DNA of 64,000 nt from Anaerolineae bacterium. GTDB taxonomy: Bacteria > Chloroflexota > Anaerolineae > 4572-78 > NAK82. Location of the stretch: NCBI GenBank assembly GCA_034436775.1, contig DAOTVI010000061.1:125-64124 (forward strand). Direction: 5' to 3'. Below, in pieces: positions 150 to 17,050 of the stretch (position 1 is the first letter of the stretch; every line of letters starts with the position of its first letter). The notes under the pieces were generated by a model that was not told where the DNA came from, did not search any database, and saw only the letters and a list, made by a program, of their open reading frames with translations. Both the position numbers and the translations under genes were made by a program.

Positions 150-1589
<1,440 letters not shown>

Positions 1590-1734
1590 AGGTTCCTCTC
1601 CCGACATTCAGAACGCTAAACAATACCAATCGTCCATTGACAACCTGGCGGGTTGGGACCGCCTGGCGGGATACGGATAACCCCCCTGTATTCACGCTGC
1701 GGGTTCCAACCCGAAAGCTGTACCAACATTCCGC

Positions 1735-2277
1735 TTAGTGCCAATGCAGCAGCTCGTCCTTCAGCTTGGGCATGCGCCCCTGTGCCAGCTCGGAAAGCAC
1801 GTAGTAAATGACATCGGCATCCGGCGGGCAACCGGGCACGGCCACGTCCACTTTCACCACCTCTTTGACCGCGCGCACGCGCGTCGGCCGGGCGATTTCA
1901 GGATCGCTGGGTATCTTGCCTTCGGCGTCTGTGCTTTCCGTTTCTACGTAGGCACGTTTGAGGGCATCTTCGATCTTGCCGAAGTTGCGCATCGCTACCA
2001 CGCCCCCGAAAACGGCGCAATCACCCAGCGCGACCAGGATCTTGCAACGTTCGCGCATGCGTTTAGCCACTTCCTCATTGGCCGTGTTGTTGACAGCACC
2101 TTCCAGAATCCCGATATCACACCCGTTCTCGTCCGGCTCCTTCAGATCCGTGATAGGGGTCGAACGTAAATCCACCAATTCCACCAGCTTAGCGATACGC
2201 TCGTCAATGTCGAGAAATGACATATGACATCCGGAACATCCGGCCAGCCAATCGGTTGCGACTTTTGGCTTCGGCAT
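1735..2277 (-). CDS. hoxY: [NiFe] hydrogenase small subunit (short, group 3 type)
   Basis: 180 aa. N-terminal WLAGCSGCHMSF proximal-cluster motif and C-terminal GCPP motif. AAGGAG lies upstream of the ATG. Position is immediately upstream of hoxH. Confidence 0.85.
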   Translation of the reverse strand: MPKPKVATDWLAGCSGCHMSFLDIDERIAKLVELVDLRSTPITDLKEPDENGCDIGILEGAVNNTANEEVAKRMRERCKILVALGDCAVFGGVVAMRNFGKIEDALKRAYVETESTDAEGKIPSDPEIARPTRVRAVKEVVKVDVAVPGCPPDADVIYYVLSELAQGRMPKLKDELLHWH

Positions 2278-2347
2278 TGCTAGACTCCTTTCAACACCCT
2301 TTTTCTACTATATTATATCTCAAATCTCTTCCACCGTCCACTATCAT

Positions 2348-4357
2348 TTATCGGCAAGCGTCCGGCTGGCCGATCCACACACGACTTTGCAGTGCCTCGC
2401 GCCAGTTCCCATCTAGAGCGATGCCCAACGCTTCCGCCAATGCCTGGAAGATGGCCAAATTGCTCCGCACATCGCGCGGTGGCGTCAACCCCTGACGCGC
2501 CTCTTGCAGACGCCCCTCAAGGTTCACGTAATGCCCTGCCTGCTCAGCCCAAATTGCGGCCGGCAGGACAACATCCGCACGGTCGGTCAAAGGAGAAGCG
2601 TAGCTGGCCTGCACCACCAGGAAGGGGACGCCCTCTACATGCTCAATGAGACGCGTGCTGGGGCGGTCGTCACCCAGTGCCAGGTAAGCCACTTGATGTC
2701 CCTTCAGGTCGAAGGCTTTGTCGAGCTCCAGCAGATAGGCAGCCGTGCTGTTCGCCTGACCCTTAGTGCCGATGACCGCGCTGCGCGTGTCATCCAGCGC
2801 GCCCGCCATGCGCGCCAGGTCGAGGAGCGCCTCCAAAGCGGTGGGGAAGCTGGCGCGCGTGAGCCCCTTGCCGTAGATGAACACCGGCCGCTCCGCCATA
2901 GCCAACAAACGTCCCACCTCGCGGATGGTCTCTGCCGGCACCCCGGTCATCCGACTGACGTTATCCGGCGTGTGTCTGGTCAGGTCGTGCGTGCCGATGG
3001 GGTGGGTGCGCACCATTCCCAAGCTGGCGATAACTTGCATGAGCCCGACGAGCAGATCATAATCGGTCTCCTTCTTGGGACGCAGCGAGAAATCGGCCAG
3101 AGCGTGCAAACCATTGTCATACGGATCAATGACCACCAGCTTGCAACCCTGTGGCAGGATGCGCTTCACAAAGAAGCCCGCCACCTGATGGTTCTCAACC
3201 AGATCCACCCCGATTGCCAAAACAAGATCCGCCTTATGAATCTCATCGAGCGTGCCCTCGAAGGGTTTGCCCAGTTTGCGCGCCACCCAACCGGGCAGCG
3301 CCGTCGTGACACCTTCCTCGATGCTGGTCACGATGCCGCTGTCCAGCTTGTCGGCAAAGAGCTGTTTGAAGCTGTACAGGGCTTCGACCGGCAGGCGCGT
3401 GGAAGCGAGTGCAGCGATGCCGCTGCCGTTGCGTCCTTTCATCGCCTGCAAACGAGAAGCCACCACGTGCAATGCCTCATCCCACGTAGCCGCCTTCAGC
3501 ACACCATTCCGGCGCACGAGCGGCGTGAGAATGCGCTCGCCCTGGTCGGTCAACGGCTCAAAGCGACCGATCTTGCACAGAACACCCTGATTCACCGGCG
3601 CGTCCCAGTCACCCTCAATGCGCAGCAGACGGTTATCGCGCACGATCATCTCGATGCCGCATCCGACGCTGCATCCCACGCAGGTTGACTTGATACGCGT
3701 CACGTCCTTAAGGCGACCCTGGTAGGCGCTCACACGGTCAATGATGGCGCCGGTGGGACACACCTGCAGACACGTGCCACACGAAATGCACGTGCTCTCG
3801 CCCAATGGCACATCCAGGTCGGCAATAATGCGGCTGCTGGCCCCGCGTTCCTGGACACCCAGCGTGAAATTGCCCACCAGCTCGCCACAGGCCCGCACGC
3901 AGCGACGACACATAATGCAACGGTTGTGATCCAGCACGATGAATTCGTGCGAGCCATCCACCGGATAAGGTTGCCAGTTGGGCTGGAGCGGCCATTCGGT
4001 CATCCCCTGTCCATATGCCGCGTTCTGCAGCTCACAATCCCCGCCGCTCACCGGACAGTACATGCAGAAATGATTGCGCTCGCTGAAGATCAGCGTCAGC
4101 ACGAAGGTGCGCGCTTCTTGCACTGCTGGGGTATTGGTGTATACAACCATGCCGTTCGCCGCGGGGAGGGTGCAGGAGGGCTGCAGTGTGCGTGCGCCCT
4201 CGACCTCCACCAGGCACATACGGCAACCGCCGTAGGGGAAGAGATGCTTGTGGTCACACAGGGTGGGAATATGAATACCTGCCTGCTGCGCAGCGCGCAA
4301 CACAGTGGTACCTTCAGGTACTTGAATTTCCTTACCATCGATTGTCAGCGTAATCAT
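2348..4357 (-). CDS. hoxU: NuoG-like iron-sulfur subunit in the HoxU position (2Fe-2S plus several 4Fe-4S sites plus a molybdopterin-oxidoreductase-like domain)
   Basis: ORF 2348..4375. N-terminal ITLTIDGKEIQVPEGTTVL...CDH...GGCRMC 2Fe-2S ferredoxin fold. Ferredoxin-type CxxCxxCxxxC motifs. CVGCSVGCG...C motif typical of the Mo-bisPGD family N-terminus. Start placed at ATG 4357, which has GGAGAGG 7 nt upstream. Confidence 0.8.
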   Translation of the reverse strand: MITLTIDGKEIQVPEGTTVLRAAQQAGIHIPTLCDHKHLFPYGGCRMCLVEVEGARTLQPSCTLPAANGMVVYTNTPAVQEARTFVLTLIFSERNHFCMYCPVSGGDCELQNAAYGQGMTEWPLQPNWQPYPVDGSHEFIVLDHNRCIMCRRCVRACGELVGNFTLGVQERGASSRIIADLDVPLGESTCISCGTCLQVCPTGAIIDRVSAYQGRLKDVTRIKSTCVGCSVGCGIEMIVRDNRLLRIEGDWDAPVNQGVLCKIGRFEPLTDQGERILTPLVRRNGVLKAATWDEALHVVASRLQAMKGRNGSGIAALASTRLPVEALYSFKQLFADKLDSGIVTSIEEGVTTALPGWVARKLGKPFEGTLDEIHKADLVLAIGVDLVENHQVAGFFVKRILPQGCKLVVIDPYDNGLHALADFSLRPKKETDYDLLVGLMQVIASLGMVRTHPIGTHDLTRHTPDNVSRMTGVPAETIREVGRLLAMAERPVFIYGKGLTRASFPTALEALLDLARMAGALDDTRSAVIGTKGQANSTAAYLLELDKAFDLKGHQVAYLALGDDRPSTRLIEHVEGVPFLVVQASYASPLTDRADVVLPAAIWAEQAGHYVNLEGRLQEARQGLTPPRDVRSNLAIFQALAEALGIALDGNWREALQSRVWIGQPDACR

Positions 4358-4406
4358 GATCCGACCTCTCCACATTTGGAATCTTCGCAGTCAACAACAA
4401 TGCAAC

Positions 4407-6056
4407 CTATGCCACCATTGCGCGGCGTCCGCTCATCGGACAGACGCCGGTGGGGCAAACACGTAATGAAATATGGGCTTCCACTTCCGCGCGGAAGTGT
4501 CTCATAATGTCTCGGATGGGCACCGCCGCTGTCTGGCCAAGACCGCAGTTGGAATAATTGGCCATGCCGTCTGCCAGCGCCAGAAGGTTTTTGAGATCGT
4601 CCATTTCTGCTGTGCCTTCGGCGATGGTGCTCAAAATTTGGTGGGCACGCTGTGTGCCGATGCGACATGGCGTGCATTTGCCACAGCTCTCCACCTTGAA
4701 GAAGTTGAGTAAAACCTTCGCCAGGTCAACGACACATGTATCTTCATCGCAGATCAGCAATGCCCCGGAGCCCAGAGAGACACCCGCACGTGTGAAAGAA
4801 TCGAAATCCATGGGGGTGTCTTGCAAGCTCGCCGGGATGATGGAGCCGCTGGAGCCACCCGTCTGGGCCAGCTTGAACGCAGCGCCATTTTTCATGCCCT
4901 TGCCGTAGATGGCGATCACCTCGCGCAGCGTAATGCCCATCGGCACCTCGATCAGGCCGGTGACGTTCACGGCACCCAGGATGGTGTACACTTTGGTGCC
5001 GGGGCTGTTCTTGGTGCCGAACTGGCGATACCAGGCGGCGCCGTTGCGGATGATGTGCGGCACGTTGGCCAGCGTCTCCACGTTATTGACCAGGGTGGGC
5101 TTGCCCCACAAGCCGTGCGTGGTGGGATACGGAGGACGCGAACGCGGCTCGCCGCGTTTGCCCTCGATCGATTCGATCAGCGCAGTTTCCTCGCCACAGA
5201 TGTAGGCGCCGGCCCCGGCGTGGATGTGGATGTTAAAGTCAAAATCGCTGCCGAAAATGCCACGTCCTAAAAAGCCCATCTGTCTGGCCTGATGGATCGC
5301 ACGCGACAGCCGTTCCAGCGCCAATCCATACTCGCCGCGCACATAGATATATCCCTCGTTGGCGCCAACGGCATAGCCGGCGATGGCCATCGCCTCGACA
5401 ATGCTATGTGGATCACCCTCCAGCACCAAGCGATCCTTGAAGGTACCTGGTTCGCTCTCATCCGCATTGCAAATCACGTATTTGCGATCGCCCTTAGCAC
5501 TGGCAACGAAACGCCACTTGGTGCCGGTAGGAAAGCCGGCGCCTCCCCGCCCGCGCAATCCCGAACGGCTGATCTCATCAATCACCTGAGCAGGTGTCAT
5601 CGTGGTGAGCGCCTTGCCCAGGGCTTCGTATCCGTCGTGCAGGATGTAGTCTTCGATGTCCTCAGGATCAATAAGGCCCACGCGGGAGAGCACAATGCGA
5701 TATTCGGCCGGAAGGGTGCCCTGACGTGCTGATAGCCAGGCAATCCTACCCGAGAGCTCCCGAACAGACGCTTGCAAACCTGCTGCAATACGCCCTTTGA
5801 GCAGGTGCTCTTCTACCAGGAAAGGCACGTCATCAGGGCGCACAGGACCGTAGACCACCGCCTCGGGATAGACAATCACCATCGGCAAAGCATCATGGCG
5901 GCCCACATCACCCACCATGGTGACCACCACTTCATCCTGAAGGCCGGTAGCACGGATCTCCTGCTGCAGGCGCTCAAACACCTGCCGCGCCCCGCGCTCC
6001 ATACTTTCGCGATCGCTGGAAACAAGCACCAAAGCGCGAGTCATTTGCATCGTCAT
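4407..6056 (-). CDS. hoxF: NAD(P)H-binding flavoprotein subunit of the hydrogenase diaphorase (NuoF family)
   Basis: ORF 4407..6158. GLRGRGGAGFPTGTKW FMN/NADH motif. ESCGKCTPCR 4Fe-4S (N3-type) motif. Start moved to ATG 6056 (GGAGAGG upstream), just after the hoxE stop at 6065. Confidence 0.85.
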   Translation of the reverse strand: MTMQMTRALVLVSSDRESMERGARQVFERLQQEIRATGLQDEVVVTMVGDVGRHDALPMVIVYPEAVVYGPVRPDDVPFLVEEHLLKGRIAAGLQASVRELSGRIAWLSARQGTLPAEYRIVLSRVGLIDPEDIEDYILHDGYEALGKALTTMTPAQVIDEISRSGLRGRGGAGFPTGTKWRFVASAKGDRKYVICNADESEPGTFKDRLVLEGDPHSIVEAMAIAGYAVGANEGYIYVRGEYGLALERLSRAIHQARQMGFLGRGIFGSDFDFNIHIHAGAGAYICGEETALIESIEGKRGEPRSRPPYPTTHGLWGKPTLVNNVETLANVPHIIRNGAAWYRQFGTKNSPGTKVYTILGAVNVTGLIEVPMGITLREVIAIYGKGMKNGAAFKLAQTGGSSGSIIPASLQDTPMDFDSFTRAGVSLGSGALLICDEDTCVVDLAKVLLNFFKVESCGKCTPCRIGTQRAHQILSTIAEGTAEMDDLKNLLALADGMANYSNCGLGQTAAVPIRDIMRHFRAEVEAHISLRVCPTGVCPMSGRRAMVA

Positions 6057-6064
6057 CCTCTCCC

Positions 6065-6547
6065 CTACGCATAACGCGCTAAGATTTGTGGCAGCTGTGC
6101 CCGGTCTACATTGCCATAAATGTCGTTGTCCACGATCACCACCGGTCCGACCGCGCACACGCCCAGGCAGCTGGTTGTCACCAGCGTCCAGCGCCCATCG
6201 GGGCTGGTTTCACCGGGTTGCAGGTGCAGCTCCTCCTGGAGCGCTTGCCACACCTCACGACCACCTACCACGTGACATGGGGCACTTTCACAGAACTGGA
6301 TGACATGGCGTCCGCGCGGCTTGGTTGAAAGCATCCGGTAAAAGCTGGCCACCGAGAACACTTGACTCTTCGGCACCCGCATCTGACGGCTGATCTCAGA
6401 AAGCGCCTCAGGCGACAGATAGCCCAATGCTTGGTTCACCTCGGACAAGACCGGGATCAGCCCTTCGCGCTCTCTGCCATGTCGGTTGATCGCCTGTTGC
6501 ACTATAGCATGCACTTCATCTACCTCTACCTGAGCGGCATTACTCAT
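6065..6547 (-). CDS. hoxE: NuoE-family thioredoxin-like [2Fe-2S] subunit of the hydrogenase diaphorase
   Basis: About 160 aa. FCESAPCH...SCLGVCAVGP four-cysteine NuoE pattern. GGGAGG lies 6 nt upstream of ATG 6547; ATG 6553 is an alternative. Confidence 0.85.
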   Translation of the reverse strand: MSNAAQVEVDEVHAIVQQAINRHGREREGLIPVLSEVNQALGYLSPEALSEISRQMRVPKSQVFSVASFYRMLSTKPRGRHVIQFCESAPCHVVGGREVWQALQEELHLQPGETSPDGRWTLVTTSCLGVCAVGPVVIVDNDIYGNVDRAQLPQILARYA

Positions 6548-6618
6548 ACTCATCCTCCCTAATCGAATGCTTGGAAGTCAGCTTATCTGCATACACGTTG
6601 CCCTTCGTGCTGTCCCGC

Positions 6619-9600
6619 TTATGCCGGCTGCGGCTGCAACTCCGCCTCAACCTCGGGGATCGGCAGCCCCACGCGCTGCATCCATTCCAGATCGCAGCGC
6701 AGGCAACGCTTTGCCTCCTCCTGGGCCATCATCTCATCCAGACCCAGCTCCACCTCGGCAAACCCACGACCGATGCGTCGTTCCGGAGGCAACACTCGCG
6801 GAGTCGGTCGGCGTGCATGGGCATAGTCCTCCACGTTGACGTAGCGCGGATAGTCATGCCGCTTGGGCTCGTACACCACCCGTTCCAACTTACCGGTGCG
6901 CAACCAGTTATCCACCGCCAGCGCCACCTTATTCCCCTGTGCGACGGCATGGATGACCGTCAGCGGGCCACTTACGGCATCGCCGGCAGCAAAGACCCCT
7001 TCGTACGAGGTCTCCATTGCCTTGCCCACCTTGATGGTGCTCAGACGATCTGTCTCAATGGCATCATCCTTCAGCCAATCGAAATCGGTGGTCTGGCCGA
7101 TGGCCGGGATCACCACATCGCAGGCGAGGTCGAACTCCGAGCCGACGATGGGGTGCACGATGCGCCGGCCAGTGTTGTCATACTCTGCCTGACGCTGACG
7201 CTGCACGCGCACACCCTCCACTCGGTCACGGCCCAGCACTGCCACCGGATTGACCAGGAAATGGAAGTGAATTCCTTCGTCCTTGGCCGCTTCGATTTCC
7301 TCGCGATGTGCCGGCATATCGCTTTCCTCGCGCCGATAGAGCACATGGACCTCCGCGGCGCCCAATCGCCACGCGGAACGCGCCGAGTCGATGGCAACAT
7401 CACCACCTCCGACGATGACCACGCGCTTCTGCTTCATATCGGGTGGGTTGCCACAGGCGATGTCGCGCAAGAATTGCACGCCCGGATACACGCCCGGCAG
7501 ATCGTCCCCAGGAATGCCCAGGCGGCGACTCTTGTGTGCCCCCAACGCCAGGATGATGGCAGCGTATCCTTGCTCCTTCAAGCTGCCGATGGTGAAGTCC
7601 TTACCCAGTTCCTGATTGCAGCGGATCTCGACCCCGGCGCGCTTGATGTGTTCGATCTCGGCAAACAGAGGTTCGCGCGGCAGCCGGTATGCCGGAATAC
7701 CATACGTCATCATCCCACCCGGCTGGGGCATCTTTTCGAACACGGTAACCTGATACCCTTGCTGTGCCAGGCGCAACGCCGCCGTCAAACCGGCCGGCCC
7801 TGCGCCGATAACGGCCACCTTCTGTTCCTTGGAGGGCGCCAAGCGCTCCGGCGTCCACGGCACCGCATATTCGTGATCGGCCATGAAGCGCTTGACCAGG
7901 CGGATGGCAATCGGCTCATCCAGCTTGCCGCGGCGACACTTGCGCTCGCAGAACGCCGGGCAAACGCGGCCGCAGATCAAGGCAAAGGGGTTGGCATCGC
8001 GGTGGACGGCCAGCCCTTCCGCATAACGTCCCTGACTGACCAGCGCCAGATATGCCGGGCTGTCCACCCCTGCGGGACAGGCATTGACGCACGGGGCGCG
8101 CACCAGATCCTGGCAAACACCCGCCGGACAATGGAGGTCGTAGATGTGTGCTTCATACTCGTGCAGGAAGTGTTTCAGCGTGCTCTCAACCGGATTCGGT
8201 GCACCCTGACCGAGGCCACACAAGCTGGTCGCCTTGATCTGGCGACACAGCATTCGGAGTGTCTCGATGTCGCTTTCCTGACCCTTGCCAGCGCAAATAC
8301 GCTGCAGGATTTCCAGGATGCGGCGCGTGCCGGCGCGGCAAGGGACGCACTTACCACAGCTCTCTTCCTGGGTGAATTCCATGAAAAAGCGGGCGATGTC
8401 CACCATGCAGGTGTCTTCGTTCATCACAATCATACCACCCGACCCCATGATGGAGCCCGCGGCAGCCAACGATTCGTAGTCCACCTCCATGTCAAGGTAC
8501 TCGGCCGGCAGACAACCGCCCATCGGGCCTCCGGTCTGCACCGCTTTGAAGCGCTTGCCGTCCTTGATCCCACCACCTACCTCGTAGATGACCTCGCGCA
8601 ACGTGATCCCCAGCGGCACTTCGATCAGGCCGGTGTTGCGGACATCGCCCGCAATGGCAAAAGTTTTGGTGCCCTTGCTGCGCTCGGTGCCCATGCTGGC
8701 AAACCATTCCGGCCCGCGCAGGATGATCTGGGGCACGTTGGCATAGGTTTCCACATTGTTGATGTTGGTGGGGCAATCCCATAGTCCCTTGACGGCCGGG
8801 AAGGGAGGGCGTGGACGCGGCTCGCCGCGCCTGCCCTCGATGGAAGCCATCAGCGCCGTCTCCTCGCCGCAGACGAACGCGCCGGCGCCCATGCGCACCT
8901 CAAGATCGAAGGAGAAGTCGCTGCCCAGGATGTTCTCGCCCAGGAAGCCAAACTCGCGTGCCTGCTGGATGGCGATGTTGAGCGTGCGCACCGCCACCGG
9001 ATACTCAGCGCGGCAGTAGATGTAACCCTGGCTCGCGCCGATGGCATAGGCCGCGATGATCATGCCTTCGATCACGGAGTGCGGATCGCCTTCCAGAACG
9101 CGCCGGTTCATAAAGGCGCCTGGATCGCCTTCATCTGCATTGCAGATCACATATTTGCGATCACCCGGCGCTTTGCGCGTGAACTCCCACTTCTTGGCGG
9201 TGGGGAAACCCGCACCGCCGCGCCCGCGCAACCCCGAGCGCGCAATTGCGTCAATCACCTGCTCCGGGGTCATCTCAGACAGCACCTTGCCCAAGGCCTG
9301 ATAACCGTCCTCAGCCAGGTAGTCCTCGATGTTTTCTGGGTCAATCACACCGCAGTTGCGCAACACCACACGCACTTCCTTCGGTTTGGGTGGTGCCAGC
9401 TCCTCATCCATCTGCTCACGCACCGGCGCCAGCAGACGGCCCACCACACGGCCCTTAAGGAAGTGTTCCTCCACCAGATGGGGTACATCATCAATGCGGA
9501 TACCGCAGTAGTGCACTGCCTCGGGATAGACCATCAGTTCCGGGCCATCGGTGCAGCGGCCCAGCCGCGGTGTCTGGAGGATGCGCACTTCTCCGCTCAA

Positions 9601-9708
9601 TCCCTGGCGTGCCAGTTCCTCAGAAAGCACCTCAATCAGCTCGCGTGCTCCCTTAGCCTGGCAGTCAGGGTCCATACACACCAATACGTGAGAACGATAG
9701 TATTTCAT
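6619..9708 (-). CDS. Fusion protein: thioredoxin-like domain + NuoF-like FMN/NADH module + 2x[4Fe-4S] + GltD/NfnB-like FAD/NADPH oxidoreductase
   Basis: 1029 aa. GLRGRGGAGFPTAKKW and ESCGKCVPCR (NuoF-type) motifs. These are followed by a Cys-rich CPAGVC...CVNACPAG...CGRVCP..C region and KVAVIGAGPAGLTAA plus VVIVGGGDVAID dinucleotide-binding folds typical of the glutamate synthase small subunit/NfnB family. Confidence 0.8.
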   Translation of the reverse strand: MKYYRSHVLVCMDPDCQAKGARELIEVLSEELARQGLSGEVRILQTPRLGRCTDGPELMVYPEAVHYCGIRIDDVPHLVEEHFLKGRVVGRLLAPVREQMDEELAPPKPKEVRVVLRNCGVIDPENIEDYLAEDGYQALGKVLSEMTPEQVIDAIARSGLRGRGGAGFPTAKKWEFTRKAPGDRKYVICNADEGDPGAFMNRRVLEGDPHSVIEGMIIAAYAIGASQGYIYCRAEYPVAVRTLNIAIQQAREFGFLGENILGSDFSFDLEVRMGAGAFVCGEETALMASIEGRRGEPRPRPPFPAVKGLWDCPTNINNVETYANVPQIILRGPEWFASMGTERSKGTKTFAIAGDVRNTGLIEVPLGITLREVIYEVGGGIKDGKRFKAVQTGGPMGGCLPAEYLDMEVDYESLAAAGSIMGSGGMIVMNEDTCMVDIARFFMEFTQEESCGKCVPCRAGTRRILEILQRICAGKGQESDIETLRMLCRQIKATSLCGLGQGAPNPVESTLKHFLHEYEAHIYDLHCPAGVCQDLVRAPCVNACPAGVDSPAYLALVSQGRYAEGLAVHRDANPFALICGRVCPAFCERKCRRGKLDEPIAIRLVKRFMADHEYAVPWTPERLAPSKEQKVAVIGAGPAGLTAALRLAQQGYQVTVFEKMPQPGGMMTYGIPAYRLPREPLFAEIEHIKRAGVEIRCNQELGKDFTIGSLKEQGYAAIILALGAHKSRRLGIPGDDLPGVYPGVQFLRDIACGNPPDMKQKRVVIVGGGDVAIDSARSAWRLGAAEVHVLYRREESDMPAHREEIEAAKDEGIHFHFLVNPVAVLGRDRVEGVRVQRQRQAEYDNTGRRIVHPIVGSEFDLACDVVIPAIGQTTDFDWLKDDAIETDRLSTIKVGKAMETSYEGVFAAGDAVSGPLTVIHAVAQGNKVALAVDNWLRTGKLERVVYEPKRHDYPRYVNVEDYAHARRPTPRVLPPERRIGRGFAEVELGLDEMMAQEEAKRCLRCDLEWMQRVGLPIPEVEAELQPQPA

Positions 9709-9741
9709 AGACCCTGTCTCAACCTCGCTATGTTGACACCA

Positions 9742-10110
9742 TTACGACGGGATGACGTACTCCTCGACCACGTGCGAATTCACCACATGCTCCTTCATAA
9801 TGCGGCGCGCCTTTTCTGGGTCCACCTTGCCATAGGTGACCTTGGGACCACCGCCCACAGTGACTTCTACGATGGGCTCCCATTCGCACAGACCGATGCA
9901 GCCCGTTTGTGTCACCACGACACCGCTTAGATTCTCCTTCTCGATGAACTCCAGAATTGCTTTCATCGTATCACGTGCGCCGGCGGCGATGCCGCAGGTG
10001 CCCATGCCCACTACAACCTGCGCATGCCCCGCAACTGTGCGTGCCTGCCGCTTTTCCAGCGCCTCTTCCCTCAGGCGCTTGAGCTCTTCCAGGGACTTGA
10101 TCTGTGGCAT
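9742..10110 (-). CDS. Small thioredoxin-like [2Fe-2S] ferredoxin
   Basis: 122 aa. GMGTCGIAAG...TGCIGLCEWEP pattern as in the ferredoxin-like genes of HydABC-type clusters. AGGAGG lies 8 nt upstream of the ATG. Confidence 0.7.
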   Translation of the reverse strand: MPQIKSLEELKRLREEALEKRQARTVAGHAQVVVGMGTCGIAAGARDTMKAILEFIEKENLSGVVVTQTGCIGLCEWEPIVEVTVGGGPKVTYGKVDPEKARRIMKEHVVNSHVVEEYVIPS

Positions 10111-10176
10111 TGTTGTTTCCTCCTATCCACGTTCTTTCCAGAGTTACATTAACTATACATTTGGAGCGATTCAGGG

Positions 10177-10728
10177 TTATCCTATATTCTGTTGCACGCG
10201 CGCAATTCCCTCGTGCAACAGCTGTTTCACAAAGCTGAGAATGATGGGTTCGGTGAGAGGGACACCATCGAGTTCCTTGAGGATGGGCTCGCTGTCGAAG
10301 CAAAACTCACGACCGTCCACAACGTGGCGGAACACCCAGCGCACCTGTGGAAAGGCGACCAGCAGGGTGAGCAACGTTCCCGCCAGGTCGCCGAGCGGCA
10401 TGCGGTCGATGTGACTGCGTTGGAACCGGGCTTCCAGACGGGTGCCCTTGCCTAGGGTCGATTCGATGCGCAGATAGCCATTACATGCCTCAGCGGCTGC
10501 TTTGAGCAGGGGAATGCCCAGCCCTACCTTGCGCGTCGTGCGCGTGGTGACAAATGGATCAGACACACGTTCCAGCAAGTCCTGATCCATTCCCTTGCCA
10601 TTGTCTTGCACCACGATGGTGAGTGTATCATCAGAGCTATCCTCACACACCGTAATGTCCACGCGTGTCGCGCCTGCGGCTACGCTGTTCTCGACGATGT
10701 CCAGCACGTGCAGCGCAATTTCCTTCAC
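10177..10728 (-). CDS. Stand-alone histidine-kinase-type ATPase domain protein (HATPase_c)
   Basis: 183 aa. HVLDIVENS (N-box-like), DNGKGM (G1) and GLGIPL (G2) motifs. No sensor or DHp domain. GTG start. Confidence 0.7.
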   Translation of the reverse strand: MKEIALHVLDIVENSVAAGATRVDITVCEDSSDDTLTIVVQDNGKGMDQDLLERVSDPFVTTRTTRKVGLGIPLLKAAAEACNGYLRIESTLGKGTRLEARFQRSHIDRMPLGDLAGTLLTLLVAFPQVRWVFRHVVDGREFCFDSEPILKELDGVPLTEPIILSFVKQLLHEGIARVQQNIG

Positions 10729-10797
10729 ACGACTATGCCCAACCCTTCACAACATCAACTAGACGTTCCTCACAAACCTTCTCCATCTGCTCAAAGA

Positions 10798-11313
10798 TCA
10801 CTTCTTGCTCTTACGATACTTGTTCAAAATGGCCGGCAACGTGTTGGGCTGTACACGTCCGTAGATGTCCCGATCCACCGTCACCGCGGGCGCCTGACTG
10901 CATGCACCGATGCAGCGGCACACCTCCAATGTAATCTGCCCGTCCGACGTCGTCTGTCCCACTTCGATGCCCAATTCCTCTTGTGCCTTACTGATCAAAG
11001 CGGGCGCACCACCAACATAACACGCTGTCCCCATGCAGAACTTGACAGTATGGCGACCACGCGGGGTGGTGGTGAAGAACGAATAGAACGAGACCACACC
11101 CCGCACGTGGGTCAACGGGATGCGCAACTTCTGGGCGACATAGGCCTGCATCGGGTTCGAGATATACCCGATCTGACTTTGTAACTCGTTGAGCACCACC
11201 ATGACCGCACCAGGCACATGGCGGTTCTCTTCTAGGATCTGGTCGATGAGCGCTCGTTGCTCGGGGACTGCAAGCGGATCATCAGCTGGAATGTTCTGAA
11301 ACGCGTTTGCCAT
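10798..11313 (-). CDS. NuoE/HydC-like thioredoxin-like [2Fe-2S] protein
   Basis: ORF 10798..11349. FCMGTACY...CIGACSQAP four-cysteine NuoE pattern. Start placed at ATG 11313, which has GGAGG 6 nt upstream. Confidence 0.85.
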   Translation of the reverse strand: MANAFQNIPADDPLAVPEQRALIDQILEENRHVPGAVMVVLNELQSQIGYISNPMQAYVAQKLRIPLTHVRGVVSFYSFFTTTPRGRHTVKFCMGTACYVGGAPALISKAQEELGIEVGQTTSDGQITLEVCRCIGACSQAPAVTVDRDIYGRVQPNTLPAILNKYRKSKK

Positions 11314-11349
11314 TACGGCCTCCGTTGTCGGCAAGAGTATCTGCAGCAC

Positions 11350-11367
11350 CTGTGAATTTTATCACGT
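11350..11367. promoter_or_regulatory. Imperfect Rex/CRP-type palindrome upstream of the NuoE-like gene
   Basis: CTGTGAATTTTATCACGT has a TGTGA-N6-TCAC core and lies 37 nt upstream of ATG 11313, in the 105-nt gap after the PHP gene. Confidence 0.3.
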
Positions 11368-11418
11368 TCTCTCTATAAGTCAAATAAGAGATCATACCAG
11401 TAAGACACCAGCCCTCTT

Positions 11419-12231
11419 TTACAGACTTTCCGGCTCGGATACAGGAGGGGCAAGGGTGGAGATATCATCCCCAGCTTCACTCCTGTCAACTCTCCGCAGC
11501 AAAACGGCAGAGCGTCCAGCACGATTCGCCAACGCCAGGCGCAACTCCGCCGTCGTGGGGGCCTCCAGGGTCAGGACCATGGGACCGGTTATCTCATCGA
11601 GTCGATGTGCATCGCCACTTTGTATGAGCGGGATATCGCCAATCTGTGGGAATCGCTGCCTGGCCTGTGTGGGCGTGATGTGTCGGGTGATCTCCAGCGC
11701 AGCAAAGGGAATACCCTCAGGCACAAATCCCAGGTTGGTGATCAAGCTGAACGCTTTGCGGTCAATATGGGCCGGGATCGCCAATCCACCCAGCGCGTTA
11801 ACGCGTACGGCAGCCTCTTCCAGCGTCATGCGTGTGGAAGCAAGCAGCAACCGTGTCTCGCGCCGGACGAACTCACCCACCTCATCTACTACAAACTGCT
11901 CGCCAAACAATTCTGCGTTGTTCTCCAAGTCAGGCAGGTGTGCATCCACCTGCCGCTGCCAATCCGCCAATTGCTCTAAGGTATCAAACAAGCACAGCAT
12001 GTGAACCTCTTCCCGGGTTTGCACTTCCATGCCGGGCAACACGCTCAGCGCACTGCCCTGTGCTGCGCGCATCACGGCCTCCACGTTGGCACTGGCGTTG
12101 TGGTCGGTGATCGCCAGCAGGTTGATTCCGCGTTCCAGCGCGGTGCGCACAATGAGCGGCGGGATCATTTCCACCGCGGCACAGGGCGAGAGCACCGTGT
12201 GCACGTGCAGCTCAGCCACATAGACTTGCAA
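11419..12231 (-). CDS. PHP-domain metal-dependent phosphoesterase
   Basis: 270 aa. N-terminal ELHVHTVLSPCA and ITDHN motifs characteristic of the PHP fold. Confidence 0.75.
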   Translation of the reverse strand: MQVYVAELHVHTVLSPCAAVEMIPPLIVRTALERGINLLAITDHNASANVEAVMRAAQGSALSVLPGMEVQTREEVHMLCLFDTLEQLADWQRQVDAHLPDLENNAELFGEQFVVDEVGEFVRRETRLLLASTRMTLEEAAVRVNALGGLAIPAHIDRKAFSLITNLGFVPEGIPFAALEITRHITPTQARQRFPQIGDIPLIQSGDAHRLDEITGPMVLTLEAPTTAELRLALANRAGRSAVLLRRVDRSEAGDDISTLAPPVSEPESL

Positions 12232-12232
12232 T

Positions 12233-12577
12233 TTAGCGATCGCGCACCCCCATCTCCCACAACTTACCCACCACCCAGAAGGTGGTTTTGTCGGTCAGAA
12301 ACAGGTTCACGCCTTCCTCGTCCGCCTTCTCGATCGTCTCCTGATCGGGGCGCGCGTTCTCGGTGATGATCACAGCGCTAAGCTCGAGCAGTGCGGCCAC
12401 CGCTACAATGTTGCTGTGCGATTGCAGGGTGACCCATATCCCGTGATGACGTGCACCCGCCATCACACAGCTCAAAAGATCTGAAGCATAGCCGCTTCGG
12501 ATCTCCACAGCGCTGAAATCACGCGGTTTGGTCAGGCATGTCAGGTTCAATTGAGCGACAATTTCCTGCAACGTCAT
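12233..12577 (-). CDS. DRTGG-domain protein
   Basis: 114 aa. Size and sequence pattern match the small DRTGG proteins found in hydrogenase regulatory clusters. ATGA start/stop overlap with the upstream CBS-kinase gene. Confidence 0.6.
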   Translation of the reverse strand: MTLQEIVAQLNLTCLTKPRDFSAVEIRSGYASDLLSCVMAGARHHGIWVTLQSHSNIVAVAALLELSAVIITENARPDQETIEKADEEGVNLFLTDKTTFWVVGKLWEMGVRDR

Positions 12578-13617
12578 CGGCTTTCCTGTCCTTCCTCCTT
12601 GCGGTCCTGTAGCGACCCCTTCGGCGAATGCAGATAGATGCGCACTGTCAAATGGGTGCCTTTGCCTGGGGTCGATTCGAGCTGCATGCTATCCGCGCAG
12701 CGTTCGATGTTTTTCAACCCCATGCCGGCGCCGAAGCCCATCTCCCGCACCTCTTCCGGCGCCGTGGAATAACCGGGTGTCATCGCCAGCTGAATATCCG
12801 GGATGCCAGGGCCATCATCAAACGTTTCGATCAAGATGTCGGTCGGCTCAATGCCCACCCGGATGACACCACCGTTGGTAGTGTGGATGATCAAGTTCAT
12901 CTCCGCTTCATACGCCGCAATGCCGCAGCGGCGCGCGACCTGAGGTGAAGCACCCAGACGTAATAACGCGCGCTTGATATGGTGCGACGCCTGCCCACCG
13001 TGGGCGAAGTCACGCGGCTTGATGTAATAACGCAACACCAAGCTGGTGCGGTCCGAGATGATGTCCTCAAACAAGTGGCTGGCGCGATAACGCTTGAGTT
13101 CTTCGAGCTGGATCTCGCGCTGGAGTGCCTTTAGCACCCCACGCGTGATGTCCCCTTTGGTGATGATGCCCACCAGCTGTCCACTCTCATCCAAAACAGG
13201 CAGACGCCCCACACGGGTCTGGGCGAAAGTTTTCAAAGCCTCGATCACCGGGCTCTGTGCCTGTACGGTGATGACTTTGTTTGTCATGTAGTGCTTGAGC
13301 GGGACATCCAGATCACCTCGGACGAGCGCACGGATGAGATCCTCAATGCTGATGATGCCCACCAGCGCACCCCGATCCACCACCGGTGCTCCCGAAATGC
13401 GGGTCTGGCGAAAGAGCTCCAGCACAGTACGCATTGGCACCTCAGGCGTTACCACCTTGGGATCGCGCGTCATCGAGTCGGCAATCTTGAGCTCGTAGAA
13501 GAGCTCCTCGACGCGGGTGATCTGCCCGATGGTCTCGTCGGTGATGCCACGCTCGACCTGCAGACGCGCGTCACCACGTCTTTCTTCTCTCAGTCCCTCA
13601 TCATTACTCTTTGCCAT
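12574..13617 (-). CDS. CBS-pair protein fused to an anti-sigma-factor-type Ser/Thr kinase ATPase domain (HATPase_c_2)
   Basis: 347 aa. Two CBS repeats (PVVDRGALVGIISIEDL and PVLDESGQLVGIITKGDI). C-terminal DDGPGI...GFGAGMGLKN...GKGTHL ATP-binding motifs of the RsbW/SpoIIAB type. Confidence 0.75.
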   Translation of the reverse strand: MAKSNDEGLREERRGDARLQVERGITDETIGQITRVEELFYELKIADSMTRDPKVVTPEVPMRTVLELFRQTRISGAPVVDRGALVGIISIEDLIRALVRGDLDVPLKHYMTNKVITVQAQSPVIEALKTFAQTRVGRLPVLDESGQLVGIITKGDITRGVLKALQREIQLEELKRYRASHLFEDIISDRTSLVLRYYIKPRDFAHGGQASHHIKRALLRLGASPQVARRCGIAAYEAEMNLIIHTTNGGVIRVGIEPTDILIETFDDGPGIPDIQLAMTPGYSTAPEEVREMGFGAGMGLKNIERCADSMQLESTPGKGTHLTVRIYLHSPKGSLQDRKEEGQESR

Positions 13618-13645
13618 TAGTTTATCCCATATACGGCCGGCAAGG

Positions 13646-13663
13646 TTGTGACAAATGTCACAA
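13646..13663. promoter_or_regulatory. Perfect 18-bp palindrome, candidate Rex (or CRP/FNR-family) operator
   Basis: TTGTGACAAATGTCACAA lies 28 nt upstream of the ATG of the CBS-kinase gene. It matches TTGTGAAnnnnTTCACAA at 12 of 14 specified positions and contains the TGTGA-N6-TCACA core. Confidence 0.45.
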
Positions 13664-13707
13664 TCTTGTATCGAAAAGACCCGGTTGGGAATGGGATAAC
13701 GATCAGA

Positions 13708-15639
13708 CTAACGGACAACTTGGACGGTTCCTAAAAATGCCGAAAAGTTATTCGGGCCGGCATTGCCGCCAACGGCCAGTGCCGTGAGTGTATCCGCTTC
13801 GTAGACCACCAGCTCCAACCGATATACGCCTGGGGATATATCAGGAGGAAGCGGCAGTGTATACACATTGAGTGCCTGGTTAAGACGCGCATCCTCGAGA
13901 GGCCAGGCTGCCGTGCGAAAGTGCCGATCGTTCAAGATATCCCGGTCAACCGAGGCACGTACATTCCCATCCGTGTCGTACAGACGCAGCGACGCTCGAT
14001 AGTCTACACCCGTCTGGCGTAACAACGCAAAGTGGAGTGTTGCCCAGGTCGTCCCGCCGGCACGTCCCCAAGCGCCATAGGCTAAGCCATCCACCAGCAC
14101 TGCGTCGCCGAACACGATGTGCAGCGGGTCTAACTCCTCCGGCAGGCTGAAGCGGACATCGCGCGGCAGTTGCCACCAGATCACGTGGTAGCCGCGGAAG
14201 TCCTTATCGCCGATGCGCTGCGCGGCTTTATCCAGCAAGAAGGGTATGACACCGCGCGGGTCGGTATCGCTGCCACGCCAGGTCACCCAGTAGAAATGCT
14301 CGTGGCCGGGCACCTCAGCGTTCAAAGTGGCGGCCGCGGTATGGATGTCCACGAATAGATACCGCAGCGGCGCCACAATACGCTCGGCATAATAGTGAAA
14401 GGGATGAGGCACATCCACATAGACGAGATCACGTGCCGTGACCCGCGCCGCCAGCCATGCGATCACACCGGCGCTGTCGTCCTTGAAGGTGGCTGTATTC
14501 GTGAAATAGCTGACGAGACCCAGCCCCAGCACGACCATCAATGCACCCGCCACGACATAACGCACCACATTTTCTATGAAAGGCCTGAGCGGCCGTGCCG
14601 ACGAGGAAAGAAGCAGAGCAGCTGTTCCCTCTCGCACCGACAATGTCATCCCCGACCACCACGCCGGCAAGGCGAGCGTGACGGCAATCAAATACCGCGG
14701 CTCGAACGAAGCGCGGCGTTGCAACACCAGGAAATAGAAAGCCAACGGAACACAGAGCCAGCCTGCCCAATACGCCCACTGGGATACCCTCATCCCACCG
14801 CGCCACACCCATAGCACCACTGCCGCCAACGTGAGAAACGCCACAATTCCTTCCAGACAGCTCCACGCCGGATAGATGCTCAGACCCACTGTATACGCCC
14901 GCCACGAACGGGTCAGAAATTCATCCCATGAAGGCGGTCGCAGGTTGGGATTGGCATAGGTCGTTGTCTGATGGAGCGCTAAGGGCAACTGGGGCGCGAA
15001 GAGGAGCAACACGGCCAGAGCGGCGAACAGGAAGCGCCATAGGCGCTGGAGTGCGCTCTCTCTGCGCGCGATGACCCAGACCAGCCAGACGAGGCCCTGA
15101 AAAGCGACCATCAAGAGGGCAAAGTAGTGCGTGTACAGACTCGCTGCTGTCGCCAACACGTAGATGCCCCACCAGCGCCAGGATGACCTATAAAACAAGA
15201 TGCGCCACTGGGCATATCCGCTGAGCGCGGTCAGGCATGTAACCAGGGCATACATGCGAATCTCTTGGGCATACGCGACATAAAGCGGGAGTAATGCGGC
15301 GAACATCCCACATCCGACTGCTGCTGCACCCGATAGAGTGTGCGCCAAGCGCATCATCAGAGCTACCGTCAGCGTGCTGAAGAACACGGAAAGATAGCGC
15401 AATGCGTACTCGCGCATACCAGCGATACCCATCCAAAAACGAAGCAGGACAAAGTAGCCGGGGGGATGAACGTCCATGCCGGGCTGGGTGGCAATTTGAG
15501 CGATCGGCGCAGAAGCCATCGCAATGGAATGCCCTTCATCCCACCATAGCGATTGAGCATCCAGCCGGTAGACACGTAATGAAAAAGCGATGAGCAGAAT
15601 AACCAGGGGGAAAATATGGATGACAGTGCGTCTCGGCAT
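13708..15639 (-). CDS. Polytopic membrane glycosyltransferase, GT39/ArnT-PMT-like
   Basis: 643 aa with about 12 predicted TM helices. N-terminal RVYRLDAQSLWWDEGHS motif typical of the dolichyl-phosphate-mannose/ArnT-type family. Large C-terminal soluble domain. Confidence 0.7.
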   Translation of the reverse strand: MPRRTVIHIFPLVILLIAFSLRVYRLDAQSLWWDEGHSIAMASAPIAQIATQPGMDVHPPGYFVLLRFWMGIAGMREYALRYLSVFFSTLTVALMMRLAHTLSGAAAVGCGMFAALLPLYVAYAQEIRMYALVTCLTALSGYAQWRILFYRSSWRWWGIYVLATAASLYTHYFALLMVAFQGLVWLVWVIARRESALQRLWRFLFAALAVLLLFAPQLPLALHQTTTYANPNLRPPSWDEFLTRSWRAYTVGLSIYPAWSCLEGIVAFLTLAAVVLWVWRGGMRVSQWAYWAGWLCVPLAFYFLVLQRRASFEPRYLIAVTLALPAWWSGMTLSVREGTAALLLSSSARPLRPFIENVVRYVVAGALMVVLGLGLVSYFTNTATFKDDSAGVIAWLAARVTARDLVYVDVPHPFHYYAERIVAPLRYLFVDIHTAAATLNAEVPGHEHFYWVTWRGSDTDPRGVIPFLLDKAAQRIGDKDFRGYHVIWWQLPRDVRFSLPEELDPLHIVFGDAVLVDGLAYGAWGRAGGTTWATLHFALLRQTGVDYRASLRLYDTDGNVRASVDRDILNDRHFRTAAWPLEDARLNQALNVYTLPLPPDISPGVYRLELVVYEADTLTALAVGGNAGPNNFSAFLGTVQVVR

Positions 15640-15853: not shown

Positions 15854-17050
15854 ATGGCATCACCCCTTGAGTGTATCAACTGTGGGGCCCGCCTGACAGG
15901 CAAAGAGCATCGCTGTCCGATCTGTGGTGCAGGCGTGGCTCTTGGACGCAGACAGCGTTTCTGCCCGTATTGTGGTGCCCGCGTGGCACAGCGTGCCCAA
16001 ACCTGTCTTATGTGCCATATGCCCCTCGACAACCTCTCCGCGCAAGGAGTACTGCGCGGCATTTCGTGGACGTGGGTCGTGGCAGTCGCATTGTCGGTGG
16101 TGTTGGGTGGTCTTGGCTGGAGCTGGTGGCGTGCCCTAGCGCTTCCCGATGCCCAAGCGCCGGCAGCAGCGGGGCAAAACGCAGTTCCATCAGTGGTGGC
16201 AACGCCCACGCCGTATCACCTGGCAACTCCAACTCCCATTCCCCCTACCCCCACGCCCCAGCTTGCCCTTACACCTGCCACGCCTTCCCCAACCCCTACA
16301 CCGGTCGTGCACGTGGTGAAATCCGGCGAAACGCTGTTGCTCATCGCTGCCTATTATCACGTCGCACTAAAAGACCTAATGCAAGCAAACGGGTTGAACG
16401 AGGAATCCGCGCGCCGGCTGCGTGTCGGGCAGGAGCTGATCATCCCAGGAGCCGTCGGGGTAAGTGGGACGGTGACGAAAGAGGCAACTAAAGTCGTACC
16501 CACTAGGCGCGTCATCCACACCGTGCAGCCGGGAGATACGCTGATCTCGATCGCAATACAATACGATGCCGATCTGGATGCTATCATCGCGGCTAATCCC
16601 GGCATCAATCCCGACCTGATCTACGTCAGCCAGAAGATTGTGGTGCCTCTGTTACCACCCACCTCCACCCCTACACCTACCTTTACGCCCACACCGACGA
16701 GCACCCCTGGCCCACCGTTGAAAGCCCCGATACTCCTTTACCCTGCCGATGGTCAGATATTCGAAGGCGCCGAGACATCTGTCGTGCTGAGCTGGGCGGC
16801 GGTGGAGACACTGAGCAAGGAGCAAATGTACCTGGTTGAGGTCGAGATACCCGGTCAACCGTCAGTCATCCCATATGTCACCCAAGGCACCGCGTGGCGG
16901 CTACCCGCCGAACTGCGACCGAACGTTGGTGAACACACCTGCCTATGGCGCGTCACCATTGTGGAACGACCGTCTGACGCCACAAGCGATCCTAGCAATT
17001 GGCCCCGCCTGAGCCCTCCATCTCCGGTGCGCCGTTTTGAGTGGCGTTAA
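15854..17050 (+). CDS. Zinc-ribbon, single-TM, double-LysM domain protein
   Basis: N-terminal CxxC pairs occur three times (CINCG..CPICG..CPYCG..CLMC). One TM segment, PT-rich linkers, and two LysM repeats (HVVKSGETLLLIAAYY... and HTVQPGDTLISIAIQY...). Confidence 0.7.
   Translation: MASPLECINCGARLTGKEHRCPICGAGVALGRRQRFCPYCGARVAQRAQTCLMCHMPLDNLSAQGVLRGISWTWVVAVALSVVLGGLGWSWWRALALPDAQAPAAAGQNAVPSVVATPTPYHLATPTPIPPTPTPQLALTPATPSPTPTPVVHVVKSGETLLLIAAYYHVALKDLMQANGLNEESARRLRVGQELIIPGAVGVSGTVTKEATKVVPTRRVIHTVQPGDTLISIAIQYDADLDAIIAANPGINPDLIYVSQKIVVPLLPPTSTPTPTFTPTPTSTPGPPLKAPILLYPADGQIFEGAETSVVLSWAAVETLSKEQMYLVEVEIPGQPSVIPYVTQGTAWRLPAELRPNVGEHTCLWRVTIVERPSDATSDPSNWPRLSPPSPVRRFEWR

Follow-up and report, generated by a model that had tools for sequence, protein, structure and literature searches.

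Results

The fusion gene and its operon

The window analysed here, a stretch of 64,000 nucleotides from contig DAOTVI010000061.1 of an Anaerolineae bacterium (Chloroflexota), carries on its minus strand an operon of hydrogenase genes and, within it, an open reading frame (ORF) of 1029 amino acids (aa), at 6619..9708 with an ATG start, in which a NuoF-like half is fused to a half resembling GltD. We conclude that a soluble hydrogenase of several subunits very probably has this fusion as its diaphorase subunit, of beta or HydB/BfuB type. The full reading, in which the diaphorase subunit works with NADP(H) replacing ferredoxin as the coupled low-potential partner, we hold with a probability of roughly 55%; the exchange of ferredoxin for NADP(H) is much less certain than the diaphorase assignment. 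Bfu-type enzymes form a large class of electron-bifurcating complexes that has come to be understood only recently; as far as we know, in every member characterised so far the low-potential partner is ferredoxin, which reacts at the B3/B4 domain of the B subunit. The fusion poses a sharp and testable question, namely whether NADP(H) stands in place of ferredoxin in Bfu-type bifurcation.

Read along the minus strand, the genes follow each other in the order CBS-HATPase, DRTGG, PHP, NuoE, HATPase, small [2Fe-2S] ferredoxin, fusion, second NuoE-like gene (NuoE2), second NuoF-like gene (NuoF2), NuoG-like HydA, HydS and HydL (Table 1). With a NuoG-like HydA that has no H-cluster, the NiFe small and large subunits and a HydB/HydC pair, the NiFe-HydABCSL gene set is complete, and the hydrogenase of the window is by its sequence assigned to the [NiFe] enzymes of the Acetomicrobium mobile (A. 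mobile) HydABCSL type.

The reading frame that the original prediction had placed here is real and lies on the minus strand. The plus-strand reading of 6619-9708 was rejected, having stops throughout. An independent Joint Genome Institute (JGI) gene call on the source contig gives an identical 1029-aa product, and the identical protein is present in a public protein collection (P0001). A pseudo-fusion of a NuoF gene, or an assembly artefact, was rejected in view of this independent call, of more than 100 full-length relatives, of 80 loci found in GTDB and of an invariant junction, all described below. Pfam places Complex1_51K at residues 155-326 (E 5e-47), SLBB at 350-399, NADH_4Fe-4S at 437-521 (E 5e-35), Fer4_20 at 531-614 (E 7e-22) and Pyr_redox_2 at 630-925 (E 8e-40). 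These domains and the motifs read in the sequence bear out the inventory proposed earlier, i.e. a thioredoxin-like N-domain, a NuoF/HydB core, a ferredoxin-like linker and a GltD-type oxidoreductase, with the corrections given below. The single-chain AlphaFold2 (AF2) model of the fusion, built with 101 homologues, is confident (mean predicted local distance difference test score, pLDDT, 87.8; predicted template-modelling score, pTM, 0.78). No solved chain spanning both halves was found in the PDB by sequence, or by fold with Foldseek (TMq at most 0.42). A 737-aa ORF lies antisense to the fusion gene at 6571-8784 (+) and was taken as a shadow ORF of the GC-rich coding region.

The N-terminal half

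In the comparison with PDB sequences residues 1-537 could be aligned over their full length with B subunits of solved Bfu enzymes. The best solved match is HydB of the A. mobile NiFe-HydABCSL (7t2r_B, 801 bits, E 4e-239), followed by A. woodii HydB (7q4v_B, 748 bits), NfnB of T. sibiricus (9n5u_B, 672 bits) and of C. saccharolyticus (9bov_B, 666 bits) and S. ovata StnB (8oh5_B, 657 bits), as against about 416-420 bits for the non-bifurcating FdsB and Nqo1. This half is best described, from these matches, as a bifurcating-type HydB/BfuB.

Conservation was read from an alignment of 198 sequences, 122 of Chloroflexota type and 75 from other phyla, with some counts made over 197. The loop GRGGAGFPT, which binds flavin mononucleotide (FMN), was read in the fusion and is essentially invariant in the family. 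The residues reported to distinguish bifurcating BfuB from non-bifurcating homologues, A202 and M204 in A. mobile HydB (PMC9304861), align with A198 and M200 of the fusion, inside the motif EGDPGAFM, which is invariant in 197 of 197 sequences. The cysteines of the B1 [4Fe-4S] cluster (C451, C454, C457 and C497) are essentially invariant as well, C497 being Ser in one of 197. The B2/Zn site belongs to the linker that follows the four-helix bundle; its ligands in A. mobile, C438, C476, H525, C531 and C536, align with C434, C472, H521, C527 and C532. Of these, C472 varies between Cys and Thr, while the other four are invariant across the family and are the exact counterparts of C437, H524, C529 and C534, which coordinate Zn in T. 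sibiricus NfnB (PMC12018979).

The NuoE-like gene that had been noted nearby was confirmed (Pfam 2Fe-2S_thioredx, 1e-46), and the best PDB matches of its product are all HydC or NfnC chains of Bfu enzymes (7q4v_C with 141 bits, against about 86 for NuoE chains). With the FMN/NAD(H) site, B1, the Zn/B2 hinge and a BfuC-type NuoE partner with a mobile C1, the fusion appears to retain the whole Bfu bifurcating core. B1, FMN and C1 make up the flavobicluster of the Bfu family (Schut 2022, Li 2025).

The thioredoxin-like N-domain is present as predicted, but in the window it holds only three of the four cluster cysteines (C11, C16 and C52), the fourth position being R48. All 75 sequences from other phyla have four Cys at this site, which corresponds to B5, a site of [2Fe-2S] or, in some Bfu members, of Zn. 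In the Chloroflexota clade codon 48 (9565-9567 of the window) encodes C in 62 sequences, R in 51 and H in seven. The B5 site may be losing its metal in this clade.

The C-terminal half

Residues 537-1006 match PDB chains 9n5u_A, 9bov_A and 8oh5_C. The highest score of this half is to T. sibiricus NfnA (396 bits), ahead of C. saccharolyticus NfnA (368 bits), StnC (312 bits), NfnL (4ylf_B and 5jca_L; 280 and 273 bits) and GltD (211 bits). Residues 538-1010 can accordingly be described, as far as these comparisons go, as a GltD-like module of the StnC/NfnA type, for NADPH and flavin adenine dinucleotide (FAD). The ligand of the FAD-proximal cluster is a strictly conserved Lys (K170) in StnC and a Glu in NfnL (PMC12018979, PMC10482914). 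K606 of the fusion aligns with this K170, and R675 with the conserved R239 of StnC, both being invariant in 197 sequences. The tail of the fusion (...EEAKRCLRCD) aligns with the N-terminus of NfnL, so the module is circularly permuted as in StnC/NfnA. This is in accordance with the kinship to Stn/NfnABC that had been proposed: the N-terminal half matches StnB/NfnB, and the C-terminal half matches StnC/NfnA better than NfnL or GltD, with a Lys of StnC type and a shared circular permutation.

The family shows no or almost no variation at the eight cluster cysteines (540, 544, 579, 583, 587, 591, 1002 and 1005). At C1002, 196 of 198 sequences have Cys, and at C1005 all 122 of the Chloroflexota group and 72 of the 75 from other phyla do (194 of 197). 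GxGxxG, GxGxxA, YRR and R675 are invariant in the 198 sequences, and GxGxxA with YRR are as in NADPH-binding homologues. Loss of FMN, FAD or cluster ligands, which the original prediction had named as refuting, was not seen; the cofactor motifs are present and conserved in the 198 homologues. Two details of that prediction had to be amended. Of the two Rossmann GxGxxG motifs the first is as stated (635/637/640), while the second is in fact GxGxxA (767/769/772), followed by YRR at 791-793. The two-cluster linker does carry its clusters but is no additional part, being the Fer4_20 domain of every GltD/NfnL-type protein; two cysteines of that domain, C1002 and C1005, come from the tail.

The junction and the parts that are missing

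Every alignment to HydB, NfnB or StnB ends at residue 537, and Fer4_20 begins there. The spacer between C532, the last B2/Zn ligand, and C540, the first Cys of Fer4_20, is seven residues long in 198 of 198 sequences; in canonical BfuB about 12 residues precede the first B3/B4 Cys. The C-terminal B3/B4 ferredoxin-like domain (IPR017896) was not found in the fusion, with zero Fer4-type Pfam matches. The B3/B4 domain of the B subunit is the place of ferredoxin reduction in Stn (PMC10482914), and in T. sibiricus NfnABC ferredoxin was seen bound 12.8 A from B3/B4 (PMC12018979). By alignment the GltD module occupies the exact position of the B3/B4 domain, and the NADPH module thereby lies on what is normally the branch to ferredoxin.

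StnC/NfnA is a NuoG-like protein with a [2Fe-2S] domain at its N-terminus, an Fdh-like domain at its C-terminus and an inserted GltD module, and its NuoG-like clusters pass electrons from the module to B1 (PMC10482914). The Fdh-like domain of StnC builds the tetramer, and its deletion abolishes the Stn complex (PMC10482914). In the fusion only StnC residues 100-566 are matched and nothing of the NuoG-like scaffold was found, neither for 1-99 nor beyond 570, and the protein ends 24 residues past C1005. Because the B alignments stop at 537 and the GltD module starts there, the topology of the fusion is not that of Stn in one chain.

Table 1. Features of the fusion protein and of its operon, with positions in the window.
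Feature	Position	Strand	Description	Evidence
Fusion residues 1-95	9424..9708	-	Thioredoxin-like domain, Bfu 'B5' site	Alignment to A. mobile HydB
Fusion residues 113-537	8098..9372	-	NuoF/BfuB core: FMN/NAD(H) site, B1 [4Fe-4S], B2/Zn hinge site
Fusion residues 538-614	7867..8097	-	Fer4_20 two-[4Fe-4S] domain: C540, C544, C579, C583, C587, C591, K606
Fusion residues 626-940	6889..7833	-	FAD and NADP(H) Rossmann domains: GxGxxG 635-640, R675, GxGxxA 767-772, YRR 791-793	Pfam, alignment to NfnA/StnC/NfnL
Fusion residues 980-1010	6679..6771	-	C-terminal segment with C1002/C1005	Aligns with NfnL N-terminus
CBS+HATPase	12574..13617	-	Putative regulatory gene (trio spans 11419..13617)	Pfam
DRTGG	12233..12577	-	Putative regulatory gene	Pfam
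PHP	11419..12231	-	Putative regulatory gene	Pfam
NuoE/HydC (BfuC)-like partner	10798..11313	-	[2Fe-2S] C1 cluster	Pfam PF01257
HATPase_c protein	10177..10728	-	HisK-like; position kept in L001-L007 and PVC-group loci	Pfam
Small ferredoxin	9742..10110	-	Thioredoxin-like [2Fe-2S] ferredoxin (HydD-like)	Weak Pfam and NCBIfam matches
HydB/BfuB-GltD fusion gene	6619..9708	-		ORF, Pfam, PDB matches, AF2
NuoE2	6065..6547	-	Second NuoE-like gene (E2)	Pfam, PDB, gene call
NuoF2	4407..6056	-	Second NuoF-like gene (F2)	Pfam, gene call
NuoG-like HydA/BfuA	2348..4357	-	Conduit subunit, no H-cluster, Fdh-like domain	Pfam; best PDB 7t2r_A, E 9e-97, residues 8-655
HydS	1735..2277	-	[NiFe]-hydrogenase small subunit	NCBIfam; Pfam Oxidored_q6 in gene call
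HydL	150..1580	-	[NiFe]-hydrogenase large subunit	NCBIfam; best PDB 7t2r_D, E 1.8e-171

Family spread and linkage to hydrogenases

More than 100 full-length relatives (59-89% identity) in the public protein collection come from metagenome bins of Chloroflexota/Anaerolineae and carry only the names 'NuoF' or 'FAD-dependent oxidoreductase'. A scan of GTDB species representatives gave 80 loci spanning the junction, at about 45-55% identity to the query, with five near-identical ones (96-98%) in Anaerolineae/Ardenticatenia bins. The hosts of these loci include Lentisphaerota/Victivallales, Kiritimatiellia, Verrucomicrobiota, Planctomycetota, Bacteroidales and Bacillota, the last with Dehalobacter, Christensenella, Flavonifractor, Pseudoflavonifractor and Peptococcaceae. 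The fusion is present in at least six phyla.

In essentially every locus the fusion is preceded by a NuoE-like gene. The context count covered 83 loci, 69 of them with enough downstream DNA to judge, and in 63 of these 69 a hydrogenase comes next on the same strand, in Chloroflexota, the Planctomycetes-Verrucomicrobia-Chlamydiae (PVC) group, Planctomycetota, Bacillota and Bacteroidota. An [FeFe] HydA directly follows the fusion in 47 of the 63. Another 12, from the PVC group, have a second NuoE/NuoF pair and then [FeFe] HydA, which is the same fusion-NuoE2-NuoF2-hydrogenase order as in the window, and the remaining four have a NuoG-like gene with NiFe small and large subunits. H-cluster domains were confirmed by Pfam in five examples. 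Five genomes (L041, L056, L071, L072 and L081) carry in-frame HydB-GltD-HydA fusions as single ORFs of about 1600-1700 aa, which provides a Rosetta-stone argument for physical association. These contexts support the earlier guess that the fusion feeds or drains the hydrogenase.

Two sister Chloroflexota loci (L002 and L003) have the order NuoE-HATPase-Fdx-fusion-HydA-HydS-HydL-protease with no second NuoE/NuoF pair, and in them the fusion and its NuoE are the sole B/C pair ahead of NuoG-like-HydS-HydL. Four loci (L001, L035, L039 and L045) have no hydrogenase within 10 kb.

Some further features of these loci are as follows. In the HydB-GltD-HydA ORFs, carried by several Bacillota, Christensenellaceae and Paludibacter bins, the frame enters [FeFe] HydA at its N-terminal 2Fe-2S domain; the same is seen in L079, which is cut. 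A second copy of the fusion with its own NuoE is found in L003 (19130-22219) downstream of the hydrogenase, split over several reading frames, either because it is decaying as a paralogue or because of frameshifts in the assembly. The operons of the four loci with no hydrogenase nearby end at the fusion, and their downstream genes are unrelated (acyl-CoA dehydrogenase with electron-transfer flavoprotein, pyrroline-5-carboxylate reductase, a sigma-70 factor and an integrase).

Discussion

Comparison with known systems

The closest solved relative is the A. mobile NiFe-HydABCSL (PDB 7t2r/7t30; PMC8880783). It provides the best solved match for the N-terminal half of the fusion, for HydA and for HydL, is among the top matches for the NuoE partner, and has an identical Bfu motif and identical B2-site ligands. 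Its operon comprises the subunits Anamo_1675-1678 and 1681, with HydD, HisK and HydP in addition (PMC8880783), and the set C-HisK-HydD-B-A-S-L-protease, with a gene order inferred from the gene numbers, fits L002 and L003. The differences are that HydB of A. mobile ends in a 2x[4Fe-4S] ferredoxin-like domain and uses ferredoxin, whereas the fusion has a GltD-like FAD/NADP(H) module of about 490 residues, and that the window holds an extra, non-Bfu NuoE/NuoF pair. A gene at the position of HATPase_c is also found in HydABC/HydABCSL operons, and HisK of A. mobile is encoded in the operon but is not a subunit (PMC8880783). The small ferredoxin just upstream of NuoE or of the fusion is conserved in Chloroflexota and PVC-group loci.

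With StnABC/NfnABC (PDB 8oh5, 9bov and 9n5u; PMC10482914, PMC11829005, PMC12018979) the fusion shares the GltD module, the proximal Lys, the Arg (R239), the C-terminal CxxC and the Bfu B/C core. In those enzymes, however, the GltD module is inserted in the NuoG-like subunit and feeds B1 via three to five further clusters, whereas in the fusion it sits on the B subunit, replacing B3/B4, with a hydrogenase as the third partner. NfnSL has a homologous FAD/NADPH large subunit with two [4Fe-4S] clusters, but NfnL has a Glu ligand where the fusion has Lys606, carries its CxxC at the N-terminus and not at the C-terminus, needs its PyrK-like partner NfnS and bifurcates at its own FAD.

Enlarged HydB subunits have already appeared in the literature. 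The trimeric [FeFe] hydrogenase of Vallitalea guaymasensis has an enlarged beta-subunit in which a GltD domain substitutes the two-[4Fe-4S] domain, and its authors suggest a second NAD(P)H site (PMC6163223). An archaeal hybrid [FeFe]/[NiFe] hydrogenase has a HydB with a 'glutamate synthase domain' (PMC11216029). Compared by description only, the architecture is the one found here, and bacterial NuoE-fusion-[FeFe]HydA loci are of the same kind, while in the window the fusion stands with the HydA-S-L of a bacterial NiFe enzyme and with a further NuoE/NuoF pair. The guesses published for such GltD-bearing HydB, from annotations or models, are a second NAD(P)H site, a glutamate link and a ferredoxin site (PMC6163223, PMC11216029). 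The link to glutamate synthesis, suggested for Vallitalea, was rejected for the fusion, no GltB-like large subunit being found in the locus. The Hydrogenedentota Bfu paper, the butyrivibrio paper and the review of multimeric [FeFe] hydrogenases hold nothing relevant to HydB-GltD. The census of Bfu enzymes chose BfuB by a domain set including IPR017896, left out metagenomic data and makes no mention of fusions or of GltD (PMC9304861); it would probably have missed the fusion, which is devoid of a Fer4-type Pfam domain. The design is widespread and was already noticed twice in passing, and the instance in the window is a new, NiFe-linked member from Chloroflexota.

The proposed electron path

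In the solved Bfu enzymes mid-potential electrons enter B1 via the A subunit, NAD(H) reacts at FMN, and ferredoxin is reduced by B3/B4 after the [2Fe-2S] C1 domain, part of the C subunit, has swung over to them from FMN (PMC12018979). The domain anatomy, the conserved ligands, the replacement of the ferredoxin-like domain and the hydrogenase linkage of the fusion were observed directly; its electron path, its stoichiometry and a possible energetic coupling of the two nucleotide reactions are inferred by analogy with these enzymes. NADP(H) would exchange electrons with FAD, FAD with the proximal cluster (three Cys and Lys606), this with the distal cluster, and the distal cluster with C1 of the NuoE partner. 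C1 would in turn communicate with FMN and B1, and these with the chain of the NuoG-like HydA and with the NiFe site, NAD(H) being bound at FMN. Such an arrangement would form a three-way junction of H2 (via HydA), NAD(H) (at FMN) and NADP(H) (via C1 and the GltD module), in which NADP(H) takes ferredoxin's place on the low-potential branch and H2 is linked to both pyridine-nucleotide pools. By analogy the overall reaction could be 2 H2 + NAD+ + NADP+ <-> NADH + NADPH + 2 H+.

The strictest form of this scheme is a ferredoxin-independent Bfu-type hydrogenase with obligate coupling, in which the flavobicluster splits the electrons of H2 between NAD+ (at FMN, high-potential) and NADP+ (at the GltD module, low-potential). 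Run in reverse, the enzyme would make H2 from NADH and NADPH together. Such a triad of substrates would be new to bifurcation based on flavin and FeS clusters. We regard this form as doubtful. If it is true, an obligately coupled enzyme of this kind would be found in Chloroflexota, PVC-group bacteria, Dehalobacter, gut Bacillota and Bacteroidales.

Many anaerobes carry the fusion, among them gut genera such as Christensenella and Flavonifractor, Dehalobacter and Chloroflexota of hot springs. Should NADP(H) indeed replace ferredoxin, the NADPH pool that serves biosynthesis would be in direct connection with H2 metabolism, models of redox balance in the carrier organisms would need revision, and a natural test of flavobicluster bifurcation between two pyridine nucleotides would be at hand.

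Alternative explanations

Several observations weigh against the reading of the fusion as a hydrogenase diaphorase subunit with NADP(H) as coupled partner. The second NuoE/NuoF pair sits between the fusion and HydA in the window, and may be the hydrogenase's actual plain NADH module, leaving the fusion pair peripheral. NuoF2 of the window has the non-bifurcating-type motif ESEPGTFK and neither Cys in the N-terminal domain nor a C-terminal cluster domain, though it keeps four of the five B2-site ligands; NuoF2 of the PVC-group loci is alike and in addition has no Zn-site ligands. To this come the Cys missing at position 48 of the window's fusion and the four loci where no hydrogenase is nearby, which may represent a stand-alone, hydrogenase-free form of NuoE and fusion or have their partner encoded elsewhere. 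In the open-access papers and bioRxiv preprints searched, no biochemical characterisation of a HydB-GltD or NuoF-GltD hydrogenase subunit was found, only the two passing genomic mentions. At standard conditions H2 reduces both NAD+ and NADP+ exergonically, so energetic coupling is not required a priori.

One alternative is an uncoupled, dual-specificity NAD(P)-linked hydrogenase diaphorase, with NADH at FMN and NADPH at FAD each exchanging electrons independently. Its anatomy and context are identical to those of the coupled diaphorase subunit, at standard potentials H2 can drive the reduction of either nucleotide uncoupled, and with the ferredoxin site gone there is no obvious strongly low-potential partner. 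Yet the residues that distinguish BfuB from NuoF/HoxF-type proteins, and the Zn hinge, are invariant in the family, a Bfu-type NuoE partner is kept, and the same operons have, for a plain NADH module, an extra NuoE/NuoF pair that is not of Bfu type; we consider independent exchange unlikely. Another suggestion, that the GltD-like domain is a ferredoxin-interacting or bifurcating site as in NfnL, has in its favour that the homologous subunit of NfnSL has two [4Fe-4S] clusters on the way to ferredoxin, as is established for NfnAB, that a ferredoxin site was suggested in the literature, and that C579 is kept as in NfnL/GltD, being absent from StnC/NfnA. It is the most improbable of the explanations considered here, since the ligand of the proximal cluster is the Lys of StnC/NfnA and not the Glu of NfnL, the fully conserved NADPH-binding motifs make a mere ferredoxin dock unlikely, and no NfnS-type partner adjoins the fusion.

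The original prediction had seen in the fusion a single-chain, Nfn/Stn-like ferredoxin-coupled transhydrogenase. In its present form this would be a self-contained Stn/NfnABC-like unit of the fusion and its NuoE partner, a ferredoxin-dependent NADH/NADPH transhydrogenase merely standing beside hydrogenase genes. Such a unit could account for the similarity of both halves to Stn/NfnABC and Bfu subunits, which is their highest, for the four loci that have the NuoE-fusion unit and no nearby hydrogenase, and for the own NuoE/NuoF pair of the window's hydrogenase. The parts it would need are missing, however, both the NuoG-like scaffold, the deletion of which abolishes the Stn complex, and the B3/B4 ferredoxin site. 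Moreover a hydrogenase adjoins the fusion in 63 of the 69 informative loci, HydA is fused to it in frame in five genomes, and in L002 and L003 it is the only B subunit of the hydrogenase operon. A canonical NfnS/NfnL pair is encoded about 10 kb from the fusion on the same contig, and together with a canonical BfuB found there it indicates that neither an Nfn transhydrogenase nor a ferredoxin-using Bfu enzyme of the ordinary kind is lacking in the organism. Our verdict is that the fusion is probably not a stand-alone transhydrogenase; we judge that explanation improbable, somewhat more so than independent exchange of the two nucleotides.

Neighbouring genes

Past the left edge of the window, after HydL, the source contig (L084, 12243-20543) continues with a protease, a third NuoE, a canonical BfuB of 635 aa with a C-terminal 2x[4Fe-4S] domain, a 950-aa FdhA-like protein with Molydop_binding, a 120-aa ORF and a pair of NfnS-like (295 aa) and NfnL-like (467 aa) genes. 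The stretch is a dense 'redox island' with a canonical Fdh-Bfu and a canonical NfnSL. On the other side of the operon, the PHP, DRTGG and CBS+HATPase trio is found upstream of the fusion operon also in Chloroflexota and in several Lentisphaerota/Victivallales (PVC-group) loci, which suggests a conserved regulatory module. Promoter and terminator scans of positions 1-14500 gave counts at shuffled expectation (5 versus 5.3 and 10 versus 10.1) and are uninformative on operon boundaries. Farther away, genes read from their translations only encode a 643-aa multi-pass membrane protein at 13708-15639 (-), an rpsF-ssb-rpsR cluster at 17041-18437 (+) and a RelA/SpoT-type (p)ppGpp synthetase at 19910-22090 (-), and look like ordinary neighbours.

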